In this document: positions 978 through 61,017 of the stretch, one piece after another
Position numbering within the stretch: position 1 is the stretch's first letter
Layout of the letters: each line of letters begins with the position of its first letter
Assembly (NCBI GenBank): GCA_964348275.1
Contig: CAYGBT010000009.1
Coordinates: 19,541 to 83,540 of the forward strand
Direction of reading: 5' to 3'
DNA: 64,000 nucleotides
DNA from: an uncultured bacterium
GTDB taxonomy: Bacteria; Methylomirabilota; Methylomirabilia; Methylomirabilales; CSP1-5
Translations under genes and position numbers: made by a program
Notes under the pieces: generated by a model
What the model saw: only the letters and a program-made list of their open reading frames with translations
Databases searched by the model: none
What the model was told of the DNA's origin: nothing

Positions 978-3900
978 TTACCGCCGCTCCTCCGCCTCTT
1001 GCCCAACTGGTCCGACTACCGGGCGGCCGCCCACTTCTTTGGTCGGCTTTCTCTCAAGCCGTGCGGCGACGGCAACCTTCGCGTCCATCCAAAGAGAGTA
1101 GAGGGTGGGGATGAGGATCAGCGTAAAGACGCTCGAGACGACCAGTCCCCCCAGGACCGCCGACCCCAAGCCACGGTACAGCTCTGACCCCGATCCCCGC
1201 GCAAAAACCAGGGGAAGCATGCCAAAGACCGTGGTGGCGGTCGTCATAAAGATCGGACGGATCCGGGTCCGGACACTCTCGAGAATCGCCTCCTGGGGCT
1301 GCCATCCCTCTCGCATGTTGTTCAAGGACTGGTGAACGATGAGGATGGCGTTGTTCACGACGATCCCAGCCAGGATCACGAAACCCAACATGGTCATCAC
1401 ATCCATCTTGATGGACGGTTCAAAGGCATTGGCAAGCCTGACGGCGAGGACCCCTCCCGTGGCGGCGAGCGGGACGGTGAACATGATGATGAAGGGATAG
1501 CTCCAGGACTCGAAGAGTGAACACATCAGGAGGTAAATGACCACGAGGGCCAGCAGGAAAGACCACTTGATGGAGTTCCAGGCAATGCTCAGGTCTCGAG
1601 CCTGCCCGGCCACATCGATGGTGGTCCCCAGCGGGAGGGCTCTCCGCACGGGCTCGACGACCTGTTCTACCAACTGAACCGCCTTCTCCAGCGGGACCTC
1701 GCCCTTCAGGTTGACGGTCAGCTTGATGGCGCGATCCCGATCGATGTGCTCGACCTTGGTCGGACCGGTGTCGAACCGGACGGCTGCAATGTCCGAAAGC
1801 TTCACCAAGCGCCCCGCGGGGGTAAAGAAGACGATCTGGTCGAGGTCCTGGGTCCGTCGCATTTCCTGGAGTGAGCCTTTGAGGATAATGTCCAGCTCCT
1901 TGCCCCGCTCCCGGAACACCCCAGCCTCCGTCCCGTGCACCATAGTCTCTACCACGTATCCGACCTCTCGGGCGCTCAACCCGAGCTGTGCGGCCTTGGA
2001 GCGGTCGACGCGGATCTGGAGCTCCGGGTTCCCGGCCTCAAAGCTGGTGTTGACGAAGTTGACTTGTGCAAGTTGGCGCAGGTCAGCCTGGAGTCGTTCG
2101 CTAATGGCGTGGATCTGCTCGAGGCTGTCCCCTTTGACATCGACCTCCAGGTTGGTCCCGCCGATAAAGGATCCGCGCCGCCGAAAGAGCGGGGATTGGG
2201 TAATGAAGACCCCTTCCGTCCCAGGCACCCCCTTGGCCCGCCCCCGCATCTTGGCAATCACCTGGCGCATTCCAGAGAGCGTATGGTATTCCTCCTTGAT
2301 GATGGCTCCCATGATGGTGTTTTCCACCCGAGCCACCGCGAACATCCGGTAGATCTCGGGCAGGGCGAACCGGCGCTCAAACTCTTTCAACAGCGCCTCT
2401 CGCTGGGCGATGTTAAGACCCGGCGTCGTTCGAATGAGCACGAAAATCAGATTGCGGTTGCCCTGGGGGAGGTAGTCAATGGGCGGCATGAACACATAGC
2501 TGAGTAACACCGCGGCCAAGACAATGCTTACGGCCACCACGATTCGCCGCCAGACACTTCGGCGAAGGGTATCCAGGCTCCCGACGATGAAGTGGACGAC
2601 GGCAGCCCCGAACCTCTCCACGCCGAGTCTGTCGAGCAATCTCCAGAGGGACCGGCGAGAGGCGGGATTGTGCGCGTGCTGGTTCACTGCCAGGAGACGA
2701 GAGCTCAGCATGGGCACGACGGTCAGCGAGACAAGGAGGGACAGGCCCACGGCCGTCGAGATCGCAATAGCAATGTCGCGGAAGAGCTGGCCAGCCTCTT
2801 CCTTCACAAAGATGATCGGGATGAAAACAAAGATGGTGGTCAAGGTGGACGCCAAGACCGCTCCCCAGACCTCGACGGCGGCACCGTACGCAGCCCGGAT
2901 CTTCTCCTTCCCCATTTGCCGGTGGCGGTAGATGTTCTCAAGGATCACAATGGAGTTGTCCACCACCATGCCGGCCGCGAACGCCAGCCCCGCCAGCATG
3001 ACGATATTCAAGGTCCGACCCAGGGCATCCAAGACCACGAAGGTCGCGACGAGAGAAATAGGAATCGCAAAGGCAATGATGAAAATACTCGACGGACTCC
3101 GGAGAAAGAGCAGCAGGACGGCCACGGCCAGGAAGGCGCCGTAAAAAAGGTTGGACCTCACCAGGCCCACCGATTCATAGATATAGTCGGTTTCGTCATA
3201 GACCTGGATCAGCTCGATGTCTTTCCCTCGATAGAGATTATTCAGATACCGGAGTTCCTTCTTGACCCCCTCCATGACCTCCAGCGTATTGGTTCCCGTG
3301 CGACGGAGCACGCCGAAGCCGATGGTCGGCCGCTTCCAGACGCGAACCACGCGTTCCTTCTCTTCATAGCCGAACCGCACCTGGGCGATGTCCCGGAGAT
3401 ACACAGTGCCGCGGGCGTCCTGCCGAATAACGACATCCGGGATCTGCCGGATATCGGTAAACTGCCCCAGGGTTCGGACCACGTACCGCCGCTTCCCCTC
3501 TTCGATCCTTCCCCCCTTGATATTCCGGTTTTCTCCTAGCAGGGCATCCCGAACCTGAGTGACCGAGATCTGCCGGGCGCCCATCGCCTCGGCATCGAGG
3601 ATCACGTGGACCTCCCGGTCCTCCCCCCCAAACATCCAAACCGTGGCCACCCCTGGAACCCGCTCCATCCGCGGCTGGATGACGTCATCCGCTTCCTCCC
3701 ACACCTCGTTGATAGGCCGAGTCGTCTTGACGATAACCCAGGCAATCGGGGTCTCCTCGTCGGTATTGACCGCCCGGATCAGGGATTCATCGGCATCCTC
3801 AGGAAGATCCTTGACCTGGCCCAGCTTTTCCGAGACATCGAGGCGCGCCACGTCCTTGTTGATCCCCCAGTCAAACTTGAGAACGATGCGGCTATCGCCC

Positions 3901-6496: not shown

Positions 6497-7117
6497 CTAC
6501 CTCCCTGGAGATGTCAGGGGCAAGCGTATCTGCCGGATCGGACTAAACGTTCTTCGATGAATGGGACTGACGCCATGTTCGGCGATGGCCCGAAGATGGG
6601 CACCCGTTCCGTATCCCTTGTGCCGATCGAAGCCGTAAGCGGGGTAGGCCTGGTGGTATTCCGTCATGATCCGGTCTCGAGCCACCTTCGCCACAATGGA
6701 CGCGGCACCGACGGACGGACACCCGAGATCTCCCCGAGCAACGGGAAAGACGGGGACATCGATCTGAGGAACCGCCAGCCCATCCACGAGGACCCCATCG
6801 GGGGCAGGCCGAAGTCCCGCTACCGCCTGCTCCATAGCTAACAGCGTGGCCCTCAGAATATTCCGCACCTCGATGGTGACAACCTCGACGACGCCCACCG
6901 CGACCGCCAACGCCTCCTCCAGAATCCGTTCATAGAGCAGTTCCCGCCGCGGCCGGCTCAGCCGTTTGGAGTCGGTCACGCCGCGAATCGGCCGGCCGCC
7001 CCTGAGGATTACTGCCGCCGCCACCACCGGCCCGGCCAACGCCCCTCGCCCAGCCTCGTCCACCCCCGCCAGCCGACCAAATCCCTTGCGGCGGATGACC
7101 CCCTCAATTCCCCTCAT
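6497..7117 (-). CDS. rnhB: ribonuclease HII
   Basis: GVDEAGRGALAGPVV catalytic motif; 206 aa. Confidence 0.92.
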   Translation of the reverse strand: MRGIEGVIRRKGFGRLAGVDEAGRGALAGPVVAAAVILRGGRPIRGVTDSKRLSRPRRELLYERILEEALAVAVGVVEVVTIEVRNILRATLLAMEQAVAGLRPAPDGVLVDGLAVPQIDVPVFPVARGDLGCPSVGAASIVAKVARDRIMTEYHQAYPAYGFDRHKGYGTGAHLRAIAEHGVSPIHRRTFSPIRQIRLPLTSPGR

Positions 7118-19764: not shown

Positions 19765-19817
19765 CCTTCAGCGCTTACGAATCCTCGTTCACGGTCCAGG
19801 ATTCAGGGTTCATAGAT

Positions 19818-19866
19818 TCTGAACGACGTACTCTGAACTATGAACTTTGATCTCTGAACTGTCAAC
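19818..19866. repeat. tandem heptamer array (7 x 7 nt: TCTGAAC GACGTAC TCTGAAC TATGAAC TTTGATC TCTGAAC TGTCAAC)
   Basis: Exact 7-nt phase over 49 nt in the ftsK-rnj spacer. The last unit contains the rnj stop codon. Confidence 0.8.
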
Positions 19867-39853: not shown

Positions 39854-39955
39854 CAGTTCACGGTTCACTGAGTTTAGTTCACGGCTCACAGTTCACCGTT
39901 CACAGACTTCTTCTCTCCGCGCTGCAGTGAACCGTCCGCCGTGAACTGTGAACTG
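39854..39955. repeat. heptamer-repeat hairpin (6 x NGTTCAC, loop, 3-4 x GTGAACN) downstream of tRNA-Met
   Basis: CAGTTCAC GGTTCAC ...GTTCAC GGCTCAC AGTTCAC CGTTCAC ... GTGAACC GTCCGCC GTGAACT GTGAACT. Confidence 0.8.
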
Positions 39956-39962
39956 ATTTGCG

Positions 39963-40038
39963 TGGTGGGCCCACCTGGATTCGAACCAGGGACCGTCCGG
40001 TTATGAGCCGGTGGCTCTGACCGCTGAGCTATGGGCCC
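39963..40038 (-). tRNA. tRNA with CAT anticodon (elongator Met, or Ile2 if lysidine-modified)
   Basis: 76 nt cloverleaf: acceptor GGGCCCA/TGGGCCC, D-arm GCTC-AGCGGTCA-GAGC, anticodon loop CTCATAA, T-arm CCTGG-TTCGAAT-CCAGG, encoded CCA. Lacks the initiator GGG/CCC anticodon stem. Confidence 0.9.
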
Positions 40039-40043
40039 ATGCA

Positions 40044-40132
40044 GAGTTCACGGTTCACAGTTGACAGAAAGAAGACAGCCACTCCGTTGCTCTAGACTGT
40101 GGATCGTGAACTGTGAACCGTCAATTGTGAAC
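40044..40132. repeat. heptamer-repeat hairpin (3 x GTTCACN/GTTGACA, loop, 5 x NGTGAAC) upstream of tRNA-Met
   Basis: GAGTTCAC GGTTCAC AGTTGAC ... TGTGGAT CGTGAAC TGTGAAC CGTCAAT TGTGAAC. Confidence 0.8.
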
Positions 40133-47050: not shown

Positions 47051-47791
47051 TCAATGCCTTTTCCGTGCCTTTTTTCCCCTTTTTTTGTATTCCGTCTTCT
47101 TTTTCCCTACGCGCCCCTCAAACTCTCTCCACAGTTGATTCAAGGAGATACCACGTGCCCCGAGAAGGACCAGGGTGTGAAACCACAGATCGACCACTTC
47201 ATAGATGATGTCCTGCCGCCGCCCCCGCTTGACGCTCAACAGGATTTCAGACGCCTCTTCAGTGATCTTCCTCAGGATCTGATCCTCCCCCTTCTGGAAG
47301 AGCGAGCTCACGTAGGATCCTGGGGGGCGCTTCTTCTTCCGCTCTAGAATGGTCCGATACACTGCATCGAGAACCTGGGAGGAATGCCCATAGACCGCCT
47401 CAGGGTGAAAGACCTGCTGGGTGACCGGGGCGGAGGAGGTGAGGTTCTTTCGGACGCGCCGGAAGAAACACGACCGATAGCCGAGATGGCAGGCAGCCAC
47501 CTGCTGCTCTACCTGGAGGAGAAGGGCGTCGCCGTCACAGTCGAGGCGGATTTCTCCGACCCGCTGCACATGCCCTGACTCTTCCCCCTTCTTCCAAAGC
47601 CGACGCCGAGACCGGCTGTAGTAGTGCGCAAAGCCAGTTTTCAGGGTCTTCCGGAGCGCCTCCCGGTTCATATAGGCCACCATCAAGACGTGGCCCGTCC
47701 GGGCATCCTGGGCGATGGCCGGAATGAGACCCTTACTGTCAAATTTAACCTTGGCGGGGACTTTCGCCACATTCACCCCCCTCTGCTTCAC
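47051..47791 (-). CDS. hisI: bifunctional phosphoribosyl-AMP cyclohydrolase / phosphoribosyl-ATP pyrophosphatase HisIE
   Basis: HisI core (GLIPAIAQD...CDGDALLL) plus HisE tail (EEASEILL...EVVDLWFH). The GTG start at 47791 lies inside a heptamer block; in-frame GTGs at 47776/47770 are alternatives. Confidence 0.9.
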
Positions 47792-47812
47792 AGTTCACGG
47801 CTCACGCTTGAG
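47786..47812. repeat. heptamer block (CTTCACA GTTCACG GCTCACG)
   Basis: Same GTTCACN family as at the tRNA. Overlaps the annotated hisIE start. Confidence 0.6.
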
Positions 47813-47883
47813 GGTCCGATGTCAGAGGTCGCGAAGAGCGAGGAGGGGGTTCCTTCCGAGGCAGGCGACATCTGGCTTGCGTC

Positions 47884-47909
47884 TTCGAAGGAGTCCGGAG
47901 TCCTTCGGA
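47884..47909. repeat. 26-nt imperfect palindrome built from GGAGTCC units
   Basis: TTCGAAGGAGTCCGGAGTCCTTCGGA, centred on TCCGGA, in the hisF-hisIE spacer. Confidence 0.55.
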
Positions 47910-48057
47910 CAGGCCGGGGTCCCGCCGCCGAAGCGCAGCGCAGGCGGGGGTGGCCCGCACTAGCGAATGACATCGCCTGATCGTGCGTAACGATGCCTCT
48001 GCGCATCAAGTCCTCGGAGAATTATGGCGCCGCCGAGGAAGGTCCCGCTGAGCTCTT

Positions 48058-48099
48058 GGCTGTCGGTTGTCGGTCATCGAGTAACGGTCGTCGGTCACC
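48058..48099. repeat. tandem heptamer array (6 x 7 nt: GGCTGTC GGTTGTC GGTCATC GAGTAAC GGTCGTC GGTCACC)
   Basis: Exact 7-nt phase, located immediately after the hisF stop. Confidence 0.75.
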
Positions 48100-48105
48100 G
48101 GGGCC

Positions 48106-48975
48106 TTAAAGGCGTACCGGGATGCCCCGTTCTTTCAGGTACGCCTTGGCTTCGCCAACGGAGATCTCGCGGAAGTGAAAGATGGAGGCAGCGAGTGCCG
48201 CATCCGCCTTGCCATGAGCAAAGGCCTCGAACAGATGCGCCATTGTCCCGGCTCCCCCGGAAGCGATCACCGGCACCCCCAGGCGCTCGGCGACCGACCG
48301 AGTCAGTTCCAAATCATACCCGTCCCGTGTTCCATCGCGGTCCATGCTGGTCAGTAGAATTTCCCCCGATCCCAACGCCACCCCTTGCTCCGCCCAACTC
48401 ACCGCATCGAGACCGGTCGGCGTCCGACCACCGTGAATATACACCTCCCACGACAGTCCGAGGTCCGACGTCGGAGGTCCGACGTCGGAGGACCGAGGTC
48501 CGAGCTCTGAGATCCGAGGATCGGTATCTAACGGTTTCATACTCGACTTCGCACTTCGGACTTCGGACTTCGCACATCTCTTGGCATCGATGGCAAGGAC
48601 AATGCACTGGCTTCCGAACCGTTCTGCCGCCTCTCGAATCAGCTGCGGGTTTTGCACCGCTGCCGTGTTGAGGGAAACCTTATCGGCCCCCGCCAGGAGA
48701 AGAGCACGGATATCCTCTGCGTCCCGGACACCGCCTCCCACGGTGAGCGGGGTGAAGGCCCGCTCTGCGGTTTTTTCGACCACGCCAATCAGGATCTTCC
48801 TGCGCTCAGCCGATGCGGTGATGTCGAGGAACACCAGCTCATCTGCCCCTTCCTGATCGTATCGCTCCGCAACTTCAGCCGGATCTCCCGCGTCTCGAAG
48901 ATCCACGAACCGGGTCCCTTTGACCACACGGCCATCCTTGACATCCAAGCAGGGGATGATCCGCCTCGCTAACAT
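48106..48975 (-). CDS. hisF: imidazole glycerol phosphate synthase cyclase subunit HisF, carrying a 42-aa repeat-encoded insertion
   Basis: Canonical HisF ends ([16 protein letters not shown]...; ...[23 protein letters not shown]). 289 aa versus about 250 expected; the extra segment [12 protein letters not shown]...SDLGLS maps to 48451-48576. Confidence 0.9.
48455..48580. repeat. 18 consecutive heptamers (126 nt) inside hisF: 10 x NGTCCGA-type, 3 degenerate, 5 x ACTTCGN (reverse-complement type)
   Basis: AGTCCGA GGTCCGA CGTCGGA GGTCCGA CGTCGGA GGACCGA GGTCCGA GCTCTGA GATCCGA GGATCGG TATCTAA CGGTTTC ATACTCG ACTTCGC ACTTCGG ACTTCGG ACTTCGC ACATCTC. Confidence 0.85.
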
Positions 48976-49718: not shown

Positions 49719-49900
49719 GCTGTCAGCAATCAGTTTAAGGCTAGCTATCAGCCGTCAGCAATCAGCAAATATTAGCTACCAGCAGTCAACAATCGGCTCC
49801 CAGCTATTAGACTCCTTTGAGTCGAGAGATCAAATCCTTTAAGCTTCTCATGGCTGACAGCTGCCAACTTACTGACCCCTGACAGCTGACTGCGACAGCT
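49719..49900. repeat. heptamer-repeat hairpin filling the hisA-hisH spacer (about 13 x GCNNTCA-type units, loop, about 7 x TGACAGC-type units)
   Basis: Left arm GCTGTCA GCAATCA ... GTCAGCA ATCAGCA ... GCTACCA GCAGTCA ... GCTCCCA GCTATTA. Right arm GCTGACA GCTGCCA ... GACAGCT GACTGCG ACAGCT. GCTGTCAGC (49719) is complementary to GCTGACAGC (49853). Confidence 0.75.
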
Positions 49901-50545
49901 CTACCTTTGGGCCAGTCTGCCAAAATTGGCAAGCAGCTGAAGGCCCAGCCTTTGGCTCTTCTCAGGATGAAACTGGGTAGCGAAGAGGTTATCCCGCCAG
50001 ATCATGGAGGTGAAAGAGATTCCGTATTCGGTGACGCCGGCTATGACGCCCTTCTCCTCCGGTTCCACGTAGTAGGAGTGAACGAAGTAGAAGTAGGAGC
50101 CGTCCGGGATCCCCTCCATAATCGGTACCTCTTTGCTTAGGTGTACCCGGTTCCACCCCATATGCGGAACCTTCAGCCGTGATGACCGATGACCGATGGC
50201 CGATGACGGGAAGGCCTCGGGAAAGCGACGGACTCGACCCGGGAGAAGATCAAGGCCCTTATGGAGGCCAAACTCCTCGCTCTCAGAAAAGAGGAAATGG
50301 AGGCCAAGGCAGATTCCCAGGACTGGCTTCCCTGATTTGACCTCCCGGCGTAGAGGATCGAGGAACCCTGCCGTCTCTAATGTTGCAATCCCGTCGGCAA
50401 AGGCACCGACCCCCGGGAGGACGATTCCCGCCGCATCCGCAAGCCGCTGCGGTTCTTTGACCACGCACGCGGAGACCCCGACTTTCTCGAAACCTTTCTC
50501 CACGCTCCGGAGATTGGCGATCCCGCTATCGATAATCGCAATCAC
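49901..50545 (-). CDS. hisH: imidazole glycerol phosphate synthase glutamine amidotransferase subunit HisH, with a short repeat-encoded insertion
   Basis: GVGAF, ICLG (Cys nucleophile), PHMGWN and FHPEKS motifs. The extra segment EAFPSSAIGHRSS precedes PHMGWN. Confidence 0.92.
   Translation of the reverse strand: MIAIIDSGIANLRSVEKGFEKVGVSACVVKEPQRLADAAGIVLPGVGAFADGIATLETAGFLDPLRREVKSGKPVLGICLGLHFLFSESEEFGLHKGLDLLPGRVRRFPEAFPSSAIGHRSSRLKVPHMGWNRVHLSKEVPIMEGIPDGSYFYFVHSYYVEPEEKGVIAGVTEYGISFTSMIWRDNLFATQFHPEKSQRLGLQLLANFGRLAQR
50181..50208. repeat. 4 tandem heptamers inside hisH (GATGACC GATGACC GATGGCC GATGACG)
   Basis: Reverse complement of the GGTCATC unit seen at 48072. Encodes SSAIGHRSS. 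Confidence 0.8.
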
Positions 50546-50549
50546 GTTA

Positions 50550-50648
50550 GTTTACCGTTCTCGGTTCACAGTTCACAGGAAAGACTCGAAGGCGCCATGA
50601 TCGCGGCTGGATACCGTGAACCGTGAACTGTCAACTGTGAACAAGCGG
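50550..50648. repeat. heptamer-repeat hairpin in the hisH-hisB spacer (4 x GTTCACA-type, loop, 5 x CCGTGAA-type)
   Basis: GTTTACC GTTCTCG GTTCACA GTTCACA ... CCGTGAA CCGTGAA CTGTCAA CTGTGAA CAAGCGG. Confidence 0.8.
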
Positions 50649-60989: not shown

Positions 60990-61017
60990 GTCCGAAGTCC
61001 GATGTCCGAAGTCGAAG
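60990..61017. repeat. 4 tandem heptamers (GTCCGAA GTCCGAT GTCCGAA GTCGAAG) immediately upstream of the rsmE start
   Basis: Same GTCCGAN unit that forms the hisF insertion. Confidence 0.75.

Follow-up and report, generated by a model that had tools for sequence, protein, structure and literature searches.

The hisF gene (48106–48975, minus strand) of the DNA stretch analysed here, 64,000 nt of contig CAYGBT010000009.1 from an uncultured Methylomirabilota (NC10) bacterium and referred to below as the window, hosts a repeat element within its coding sequence. The gene is listed as an intact open reading frame (ORF) of 289 aa, and its product is the cyclase subunit of imidazole glycerol phosphate synthase. 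Codons 134–175 belong to an in-frame insert of exactly 126 nt (48451–48576, minus strand; 42 aa, CAKSEV...DLGLS) built of tandem 7-nt units and units of inverse sequence. We consider it reasonably probable that this insert is one copy of a family of heptamer-array hairpins, tolerated in a permissive HisF loop and shaped at the level of the DNA or RNA.

Position and anatomy of the insert

The solved HisF chains 4evz, 1ka9 and 1thf always align to the window HisF in two stretches, residues 1–134 and 173/177–289, with E-values of 5.7e-105 (4evz) and 6e-95 (1ka9_F) ranging down to ~1e-78; the residues between the two stretches have no counterpart in these three chains. Membership in the HisF family is evident from this similarity, and the homologues carry the precomputed PF00977 (His_biosynth) annotation. 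D11 and D130 (T. maritima numbering), the catalytic residues, are invariant across a 50-sequence HisF alignment. The AlphaFold2 model (pTM 0.83, pLDDT mostly >90) has the alternating strands and helices of a (beta-alpha)8 pattern, the HisF fold, and its pLDDT drops below 50 at residues 144–172, between the strands 125–135 and 174–180. A normal barrel is thereby predicted, with the insert modelled as a disordered loop at the tip of a two-stranded extension (beta-hairpin) after beta5. The loop starts three residues past the catalytic Asp130, and by comparison with established HisF/HisH structures it is on the catalytic (C-terminal) side of the barrel, opposite the face where HisH docks.

The order of genes around hisF is conserved (hisG-D-B-H-A-F-IE, then rpsU, yqeY, mutS2, dnaG and rpoD), and the nearest HisF proteins are those of Methylomirabilota/NC10. 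The identical 289-aa HisF is recorded on four contigs from NCBI and Logan assemblies, and an assembly artefact is therefore very unlikely.

In the mRNA, the insert opens with a 5' arm (48546–48575, minus strand; peptide KSEVRSAKS) of about four AAGTCCG/AAGTGCG units, ACTTCGG/ACTTCGC on the plus strand, for which Tandem Repeats Finder (TRF) reported period 7, 4.3 copies, 91% matches and the unit ACTTCGC. Degenerate central units with an apical stem-loop follow (48520–48545, minus strand; sense GAGTATGAAACCGTTAGATACCGATC), and then the 3' arm (48456–48519, minus strand) of about nine CTCGGAC-type units, GTCCGAG on the plus strand (TRF: period 7, 9.1 copies, 73% matches, unit GTCCGAG). Some units of the 3' arm are flipped and thus create the perfect 12-nt palindromes TCCGACGTCGGA at 48464–48475 and 48478–48489. 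The hairpin is closed by a long-range inverted repeat with arms at 48455–48479 and 48545–48569, 25 nt each, 80% complementary and 65 nt apart. Of the lags 4–12, none but lag 7 attained 22 or more self-matches out of 28 at any position of the window.

Folding of the insert gave −55.5 kcal/mol for the sense RNA (z −1.9; 11 of 200 shuffles folded as well) and −63.4 kcal/mol for the antisense RNA (z −3.7; 1 of 200 shuffles), with z −2.7 for the plus-strand DNA. The hairpin is real but imperfect, and it folds better than shuffled sequence, though not dramatically so. G-U pairs were considered as a sign of the structured strand, and the idea was dropped: the antisense of hisF folds better, and in most other elements of the window it is the gene-sense strand, which is also G-rich. 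At the junctions of the insert (AAGAGA/TGTG...GTCG/TGGGAG), compared with those of miniature inverted-repeat transposable elements, inverted arms are present and no target-site duplication is evident. The units do not fit the consensus of the attC core sites of integrons (GTTRRRY) or of the GTAG heads of REP elements, and both were set aside. An Rfam scan of the whole window returned tRNA-Met only, and the heptamer elements were without a match.

These results agree with a preliminary description of this DNA in that a heptamer insert lies in frame in hisF (ORF, alignment to the solved chains and TRF) and, according to the model, forms a surface loop. The end that it gave, 48580, lies 4 nt too far. 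Its "exactly 18 tandem heptamers" are right as a count of the seven-base slots between the AIDAKR and WEV codons, of which only ~13 hold recognisable repeats. The hairpin symmetry that it saw is borne out by the inverse arms, while its blocks of ~10, 3 and 5 units reduce to ~9 and ~4 units in an imperfect fold. The loop had been expected to lie away from both the HisH interface and the active site; only the former holds, as the loop is on the catalytic face. The block/loop/inverse-block layout that it noted in the intergenic elements of the window was likewise recovered, and the two-unit pattern GTCCGARGTCCGA is enriched in the window (18 matches versus 7.0 expected; none of 100 shuffles reached 18).

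We compared the site across hisF loci of related genomes or metagenome contigs (L-numbers, e.g. L161, L168). The NC10 loci came from metagenome and genome scans and are among the matches listed there; representative alleles were taken individually. In 113 parsed Methylomirabilota-type HisF, the stretch from AIDAKR to WEV comprises 4 aa (AGIR) in one, 10–11 aa in four and 19–53 aa in 108. An insert is likewise present in HisF of the complete M. oxyfera genome. As checked on the DNA, the inserts translate at least nine heptamer units, usually with one heptamer in the N-terminal half and its complement in the C-terminal half. From these comparisons the site appears to have been occupied since early in the phylum. 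Heptamer-derived inserts at that codon position in 108 of 113 proteins rule out a recent or private invasion, a point for which the preliminary description had called for an alignment of orthologues.

The alleles were grouped by their left unit into classes A (AAGTCCG; peptide halves KSEVRSPKSE / GPRTSDVGLS), B (GAGAGTC), C (GTTCACG; FTVHGSQFTE / EPSTVNRELS), D (GGTTCAG), E (GTTTCGA), F (GTTCCAG), G (GTGCGAG) and H (GAGAGCC), beside the M. oxyfera allele (AGTGTCA, with the right arm CCCCACA). Class A occurs in lengths of 21, 28, 35 and 42 aa, that is, in steps of three heptamers or seven codons; the other classes have no such clean series, and length is often constant inside a class (26, 28 or 36 aa). 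Some relatives carry 78-nt inserts, which are not a multiple of 7, so the required length is a multiple of 3 and not of 21. The argument that 126, as a common multiple of 7 and 3, preserves the frame is therefore correct as to the frame and asks more than is needed. The frame was kept in nine of nine loci from the DNA-level search (among the matches listed) and in the window. The site thus does not behave as a phase-variable contingency locus, since frames are kept and length differences are multiples of 3 (21 nt within class A). A GTCCAC variant unit in the right arms of types C and D removes an in-frame TGA. We did not retain it as a coding-specific patch, since similar variant units are also intergenic; it meets a necessary condition and is no proof of adaptation.

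One pair of loci illustrates change in copy number. The site of L171 looks empty (GCAGGGATTAGG, AGIR), and that of L172 reads GC-AGGGGTT-AGGGGTC-AGGGGTC-AGGGGTG-AGG, exactly 21 nt of AGGGGTY units longer and without an inverse arm. This looks like a gain of units in register and not like an insertion with duplication, and it indicates that arrays can grow or shrink in place. Whether a seed or a remnant, the pair appears to document three-unit steps. The origin by invasion that the preliminary description proposed is only a possible one, as this pair speaks of growth or shrinkage in place.

Unit differences, divergence of the insert and covariation of the arms

Near-identical strains were found to carry different units. 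L168 (class A, GTCCGAA type) and L170 (class B, GAGAGTC/CCCTCAG type), contigs from different metagenomes, have 5 differences in the 744 hisF bases that flank the insert and 43 in its 84 bases. Their inserts are of equal length, with sharp borders directly after CGCCGTCC and directly before TGGGAGGTG. Between the same contigs, otherwise ~99.3% identical, we also noted a cluster of 12 differences in 100 nt (alignment columns 819–919), where hisF ends and the spacer behind it begins; this cluster may be a further recombination patch or another variable element.

A comparable picture was obtained from L168, L169 and L081, whose flanks are 93–95% identical and whose units are GTCCGA, GTTCAC and GTTCAG, respectively. 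When aligned, all three inserts keep the heptamer register, and each change of unit is mirrored in the inverse arm (TCGGAC, GTGAAC and (C/A)TGAAC). When L168 and L169 were compared in 40-nt sliding steps over hisH-hisA-hisF, identity was ~95% throughout except for islands that coincide with the hisH array, the element between hisH and hisA, the insert of hisF and the spacer downstream of it. The 15 HisF whose core is at most 2.5% different from that of P0003 include representatives of four classes (A to D), and HisF pairs with <2% core divergence have a common class in 67% only. A UPGMA tree served solely to show that the classes are intermixed.

The units of hisF are met again elsewhere in the genome that carries them. 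Between the hisF arms and further arrays of the respective locus, stretches of 25–31 nt are 92–100% identical, for instance 28 nt at 100% in M. oxyfera and 31 nt at 97% to the prmC array in L164. In 10 genomes, units at different loci were shared (at most one mismatch) in 26% of pairs within a genome, compared to 6.2% between genomes and 1.8% for random heptamers; none of 5000 permutations reached the observed sharing within genomes.

Alleles of the same class diverge in a manner unlike that of their flanks. Between the window and its closest relative L161, which has the same 18-slot layout with 16 differences, divergence per codon position is 0.14, 0.17 and 0.07 in the insert, the third position being the least diverged, and 0.065, 0.044 and 0.298 in the flanks. 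The insert as a whole diverged by 0.127 compared to 0.298 at flank third positions in this pair, by 0.13 compared to 0.41 in L170/L001, by 0.21 compared to 0.44 in L162/L168 and by 0.22 compared to 0.38 in L163/L081. Divergence of the insert is thus flat over codon positions in same-class pairs, unlike in the flanks, and at the amino-acid level the insert diverges ~5–20 times as much as the HisF core. Such a pattern is unlike that of a protein-coding segment under amino-acid selection. Being flat and slower than synonymous, it indicates either a constraint on nucleotide sequence or structure, or an ancestry of the cassettes more recent than that of their flanks.

The pairing of the arms was found to persist through these changes. 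Over nine classes, the left unit and the reverse-complemented right unit differ by 1.67 mismatches, compared to 2.99 when permuted, and none of 20000 permutations was as low. Arm complementarity outlasts the changes of unit, and the hairpin is intrinsic to the element. In the consensus hairpin of the window and L161, two pairs have both bases exchanged and still pair (G-C to A-U; U-A to C-G), and a third survives as G-U in place of G-C; the U-A to C-G and the G-C to G-U changes lie in the apical stem (48520–48545). With two sequences, these compensatory changes are only suggestive of support for the hairpin. Complementarity is eroded in class B and, to a lesser degree, in M. oxyfera.

Arrays elsewhere in the window and in other lineages

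Among the 13 arrays with at least three copies in the window, 10 are intergenic. The unit of the hisF insert itself recurs at 60990–61017 (plus strand; GTCCGAA, 4.1 copies by TRF and pattern matches) without an inverse arm; 26 nt of this array (60990–61015) are 92% identical to the hisF insert. Within the his operon, hisH (49901–50545) contains a second in-frame array (50181–50207, minus strand; GGTCATC, 3.9 copies; codons ~113–122, peptide SSAIGHRSS), in a loop that is ~11 aa longer than in T. thermophilus HisH according to the alignment to 1ka9_H. Other units occupy this position in L162, L168, L163, L001 and L172. HisH is 214 aa in the window, L162, L163 and L168, yet the unit differs among them (GTCATCG, GTCCTCA, TCGGACT); L001 has CCCTCAG and L172 has ATCAGCC.

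The hairpins of the spacers have the same block/loop/inverse-block layout. The hisB/hisH spacer element (50549–50642) consists of GTTCAC-N units, a loop and GTGAAC-N units, and syntenic elements with other units occur in L169, L163, L001 and L166. That of the hisH/hisA spacer (49743–49900) has AGCAATC-type and then CTGACAG-type units, and the one at 19787–19860 has GTTCAGG units followed by CTGAAC-type units (TRF consensus ACTCTGA). The hisF/hisIE spacer is also among the positions with such elements. This spacer (47792–48105, 314 nt) is highly structured (−143.9 kcal/mol for the plus strand, 47790–48110) and holds short runs of hisF-type units, GGTCCGATGTCAGAGGTC and GGAGTCCGGAGTCC, as well as two copies of TGTCGGT directly after the hisF stop codon. 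The tRNA-Met gene (39963–40038, minus strand) is flanked by heptamer hairpins on both sides, GTTCAC/GTGAAC elements at 39856–39955 and 40045–40132. The former has the right arm GTGAAC-CGTCC-GCC-GTGAAC-T-GTGAAC-TGA, which is very similar to that of the type-C hisF insert in L169, variant unit included. In L162, L163 and L167, the rpoD/CT398 spacer holding this tRNA gene has arrays with other units. Positions of the elements are syntenic across deep divergence (hisB/hisH, hisH/hisA, hisF/hisIE and murA/hisG spacers and the surroundings of tRNA-Met), and the unit at each site changes.

In-frame arrays were also seen in other genes of related genomes. In prmC, the release-factor methyltransferase gene, heptamer hairpins lie in frame at one site in three Methylomirabilis-type genomes (L164 2966–3064, L166 2750–2845 and L165 1786–1842), with GTTTCGA/AAACCCG units in two and AGTGTCA/CAACACT in M. 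oxyfera; PrmC is 339–347 aa long in L164 and L166, compared to 297–308 aa in L165 and L163. The prmC of the window has no hairpin array of this kind. The 3' end of hisD in L166 carries an AGGTGCG/CACCCCG array (6701–6775), its HisD being 452 aa long versus 429–430 aa elsewhere, and the Lhr helicase gene of L167 has 9.7 copies of CGCACCC (3203–3270), of which 26 nt are identical to the right arm of the hisF insert of that genome. No other internal indel of at least 4 aa was found in 18 window proteins compared with their L163 orthologues.

Two features of the surroundings were recorded. GC skew of the plus strand is negative in all 2-kb windows but one (cumulative −2.66 over 1–64000) and nearly all long ORFs lie on the minus strand, which places the window within one replichore, its genes co-oriented on the G-rich strand. 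In Methylomirabilis-type genomes, toxin–antitoxin clusters (ParE, PhdYeFM, HicA/HicB, CopG) are found directly downstream of or inside the his operon (L164 15695–16750, L165 13093–16400 and L172 1023–1333), a position occupied by rpsU-yqeY-mutS2 in the clade of the window.

Outside the Methylomirabilota type, HisF-loop arrays were found in a Planctomycetia metagenome-assembled genome (MAG), a Binatia MAG and unassigned metagenome contigs, and in several of these loci 7 is the best period of the insert. Hairpins occur in L115 (1434–1505; a clean one, four GACGGAA then four TCCGTCG), L103 (4400–4525; TATCGCC type) and L056, the Planctomycetia MAG (3400–3474). L089 (660–713) and L124 (1841–1903) have direct repeats only, and further period-7 arrays lie in L014 (2972–3016), L095 (417–461) and L117 (4400–4444). 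Two members of a Binatia-like group, L014 and L095, share 95.6% identity apart from the loop, which in each is 15 aa long and made of four units (GTCGGCA in L014, AGACTCC(/T) in L095); in L088, of this group too, the loop is 8 aa with a single CCAGACTCC. Inserts of 23–30 aa in the same loop of Asgard archaea and Nitrospinota show no periodicity. As inserts of unrelated kinds and lineages are found there, this HisF loop is generally permissive and has been used repeatedly by heptamer arrays. Block/inverse-block pairs also lie next to hisF in unrelated metagenome contigs (e.g. GAGCAAT/CTCATTG, TAAAACG/TTTTACG and AATTCAA/CTTGAAC; L093 906–990, L109 1306–1370, L117 4801–4870, L125 5583–5650 and L101 3143–3290). 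These pairs suggest that heptamer hairpin elements are more widespread than NC10.

Known repeat families and competing explanations

The comparison with Rickettsia palindromic elements (RPEs) made in the preliminary description is apt as an analogy. RPEs are ~150-bp copies of ten conserved consensus families with a conserved peptide each (Ogata et al. 2000, reviewed in PMC10969869). Both are palindromic repeats lying in frame in unrelated housekeeping genes, where they add a peptide at positions compatible with the fold, and both have intergenic copies; in hisF, the repeat lies within the ORF and the fold of the product is kept in the model. The hisF element differs in having no long consensus, 7-nt units that vary by genome or strain, a phylum-wide site and a peptide that is not conserved. 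Judged by description, it belongs to no RPE consensus family: copies share only unit runs of 20–31 nt, the peptide classes are unrelated and the host is Methylomirabilota.

The STRR1–3 units of heterocystous cyanobacteria are CCCCAGT, TTGGTCA and CAACAGT; those of hisF are GTCCGAG and ACTTCGG, in the lineage NC10. Cyanobacterial STRRs, to be considered with heptanucleotide long simple sequence repeats (SSRs), occur even inside the functional RNase P RNA gene, and slippage is held responsible for differences in length among relatives (Mazel 1990, Mrazek 2007 and Vioque 1997, via PMC4679880, PMC4692102 and PMC2858038). The likeness lies in tandem heptanucleotide arrays that are mostly intergenic, with several unit families per genome, which is also what we observed here. 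These repeats are described as direct, and an obligatory inverse arm, in-frame residence in enzymes and switching of units at fixed sites are not described for them. A spacer array in L084 (5382–5411) has 4.3 copies of TTGGTCA, the STRR2 unit; given ~80 arrays examined, this is within chance expectation and was judged a coincidence.

REP/BIME elements, and REPINs with RAYT, are short hairpin elements of operon spacers that form genome-specific families evolving as populations and whose doublets form hairpins. REPs have heads of conserved sequence and no internal 7-nt periodicity, seldom lie in coding regions and need a cognate RAYT, an IS200/IS605-like TnpA. No transposase Pfam domain was found among the genes called in the flanks of the relatives (up to 20 kb), in a survey with no search aimed at RAYT.

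The TAACTGA repeats of Beggiatoaceae, Cyanobacteria and Bacteroidetes, a single unit common across phyla, are likewise heptamer direct repeats at many intergenic sites, and the few ORF copies are read in three frames (LSVISYQ) (MacGregor 2015, PMC4679880). They differ in lying mostly just upstream of start codons, with one inverted example in that genome, and their ORF copies are at protein ends or in hypothetical proteins and not in the core of an essential enzyme (PMC4679880). Borg tandem repeats evolve fast within ORFs and add disordered peptide, as the hisF arrays do; their unit lengths are divisible by three and the repeats are direct (PMC9879509), whereas the 7-nt unit of hisF passes through all three frames and has an inverse arm as its counterpart. 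Palindromic amphipathic repeat coding elements (PARCELs) are DNA-level palindromic repeat coding sequences in protein genes of diverse microbes, and encode a defined amphipathic repeat in surface proteins (PMC2996958); the hisF-type inserts differ in having no conserved peptide motif and cytoplasmic enzymes as hosts. Full-text literature searches found no description of heptamer hairpins in NC10 or of in-frame heptamer hairpins in enzymes. None of RPE, STRR, TAACTGA and REP/REPIN combines heptamers with an inverse arm, phylum-conserved sites in essential enzymes and unit replacement between near-identical strains. The element resembles RPEs and STRRs and belongs to neither.

In the explanation that we favour, the family would consist of tandem 7-nt units, a short loop and inverse units, resident in operon spacers and in a few permissive protein loops of Methylomirabilota. 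Ribosomes would read the insert through, taking the three frames of the 7-nt unit in turn, and an enzyme normal in all other respects would bear a disordered surface loop of 42 aa. Copy number would be altered by replication slippage, with only three-unit steps (21 nt, 7 codons) surviving in coding regions. The unit would be overwritten through exchange among dispersed arrays, be it ectopic conversion, template switching or transfer of whole cassettes, and the shared G-T-x-C skeleton of the units would hold this exchange in register. Different cassettes in near-identical strains and reuse of a unit at several loci per genome would be the outcome, the complementarity of both arms being maintained, and the host gene would be selected for no more than an uninterrupted frame and a polar peptide that HisF can bear. 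What we infer here is the mechanism (slippage and conversion) and the lack of a role at the protein level.

Several observations weigh against this explanation. The sense-strand hairpin of the window copy is only marginally better than shuffles (z −1.9), and the hairpin is lost in some alleles (z +0.7 in class B, −0.3 in L086). Translation of the insert is presumed from the conservation of the frame and of stop codons. The B alleles L170/L001 and the A alleles L168/L162 are alignable over their full length while their flanks are only ~80% identical (~81% in L170/L001), and classes A and B are each about as old as the lineages that carry them; the differences between strains could therefore reflect allelic recombination of old cassettes and not new rewriting. 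No conversion tract or donor array was caught directly. Neutral concerted evolution alone does not explain inserts that diverge more slowly than synonymous sites, and this slow divergence points to purifying selection on the nucleotides, that is, a function, or to a recent transfer of cassettes.

The same slow divergence, with its lack of a codon-position pattern, is what functional cis-elements in the RNA or DNA would produce, such as mRNA-stabilising or processing hairpins or sites bound by a heptamer-reading protein in the long his-operon transcript; the hisF copy would then be kept by selection for this role, HisF only tolerating it. The arms covary across the allele classes, two compensatory pairs and one G-C to G-U change occur among the 16 differences between the window and L161, the spacer positions are syntenic over deep divergence, site occupancy is conserved through the phylum, and MacGregor proposed a post-transcriptional role for the TAACTGA heptamer repeats (PMC4679880). 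Against this, the unit at any one site varies, and a factor that reads it would need either to recognise structure or to change along with the unit; the hairpin is gone from some lineages (class B), and others retain next to nothing of the insert (AGIR; remnants of 10–11 aa); there is no Rfam match; and the better-folding strand is antisense in hisF and sense in most other elements of the window. We regard such a function as a serious candidate of limited probability. A purely local microsatellite, in which slippage enlarged a proto-repeat of native loop codons and fold-back template switching added the inverse arm, without inter-locus copying or a mobile element, seems rather improbable to us. 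It would account for the GCAGGGATTAGG (AGIR) site beside that with 21 nt more of AGGGGTY units, for the single CCAGACTCC of L088 beside the four AGACTCC/T units of L095, for the 21-nt length series of class A and for the heptamer register relative to the flanks that is kept over classes A, C and D; heptanucleotide repeats are moreover cited as the most abundant long SSRs in many bacteria and ascribed to slippage (Mrazek 2007, as relayed by PMC4679880). It does not account for the sharing of units among unlinked loci, far higher within than between genomes, nor for the resemblance of the type-C hisF right arm to an intergenic element of another genome, variant unit included, and 43 coordinated differences in 84 nt, compared to 5 in 744 (0.7%) in the flanks, are too many for point mutation and slippage.

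Unit replacement of this extent could also be the work of a dedicated, genome-specific mechanism that sets the unit and overwrites the arrays in place and in register at many fixed sites, loops of essential enzymes included; we think this unlikely, and the candidates would be a recombinase or nuclease that recognises hairpins and is coupled to templated repair, or else a polymerase working from a template. If it were true, the sites would be programmed hypervariable cassettes and not passive microsatellites. That the loop starts only three residues past Asp130 suits an adaptive hypervariable protein loop on the catalytic face, under diversifying or length selection and serving for example active-site gating or interactions, to which the heptamers merely supply mutations. 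The often constant length per class (26, 28 or 36 aa) would fit it as well, the conserved non-repeat inserts of 23–30 aa at that loop in Asgard archaea and Nitrospinota indicate that extensions can be structural, and Borg repeats are argued to create selected disordered regions (PMC9879509). But we found no codon-position signature of protein selection, the third positions of the window/L161 pair being the least diverged; no sequence relationship links the peptide classes, pLDDT is <50, like arrays sit in non-coding spacers, and it is not obvious why a biosynthetic enzyme of the cytoplasm should diversify from strain to strain. We consider this explanation very improbable. An assembly artefact, or an inactive hisF copy beside a second intact gene, can be practically discounted: tandem repeats can confuse short-read assemblers, and a second hisF is conceivable elsewhere in a genome of which the window covers 64 kb, yet the exact 289-aa sequence stands on four contigs, as against the mis-assembly that the preliminary description had wished to exclude, an 89%-identical relative has the same 18-unit layout, frames are intact in nine of nine DNA-search loci (among the matches listed) with invariant catalytic residues, the his operon around the gene is conserved, and the hisF of the complete M. 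oxyfera genome also has the insert.

The cassettes expose a fast process, in which all units at fixed sites can differ between strains ~99% identical otherwise, and they are ready strain markers for NC10 methane oxidisers. They also call for caution in annotation, alignment and phylogeny, where pipelines will not distinguish them from normal protein sequence. HisF is a model (beta-alpha)8 barrel for protein engineering, and these genomes amount to a natural experiment in insertion tolerance at one of its loops, with 4 to 53 residues of many unrelated sequences. The elements may serve the cell, as RNA hairpins in polycistronic transcripts or as protein sites, or only themselves; service to the cell is the less likely case, and the slow divergence keeps it alive. 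The hisF insert would be an element that follows rules of its own at the nucleic-acid level (7-nt periodicity, complementary arms and units specific to the genome) and that has resided in the coding sequence of an essential enzyme for the lifetime of the phylum, the same DNA answering to two kinds of constraint simultaneously.

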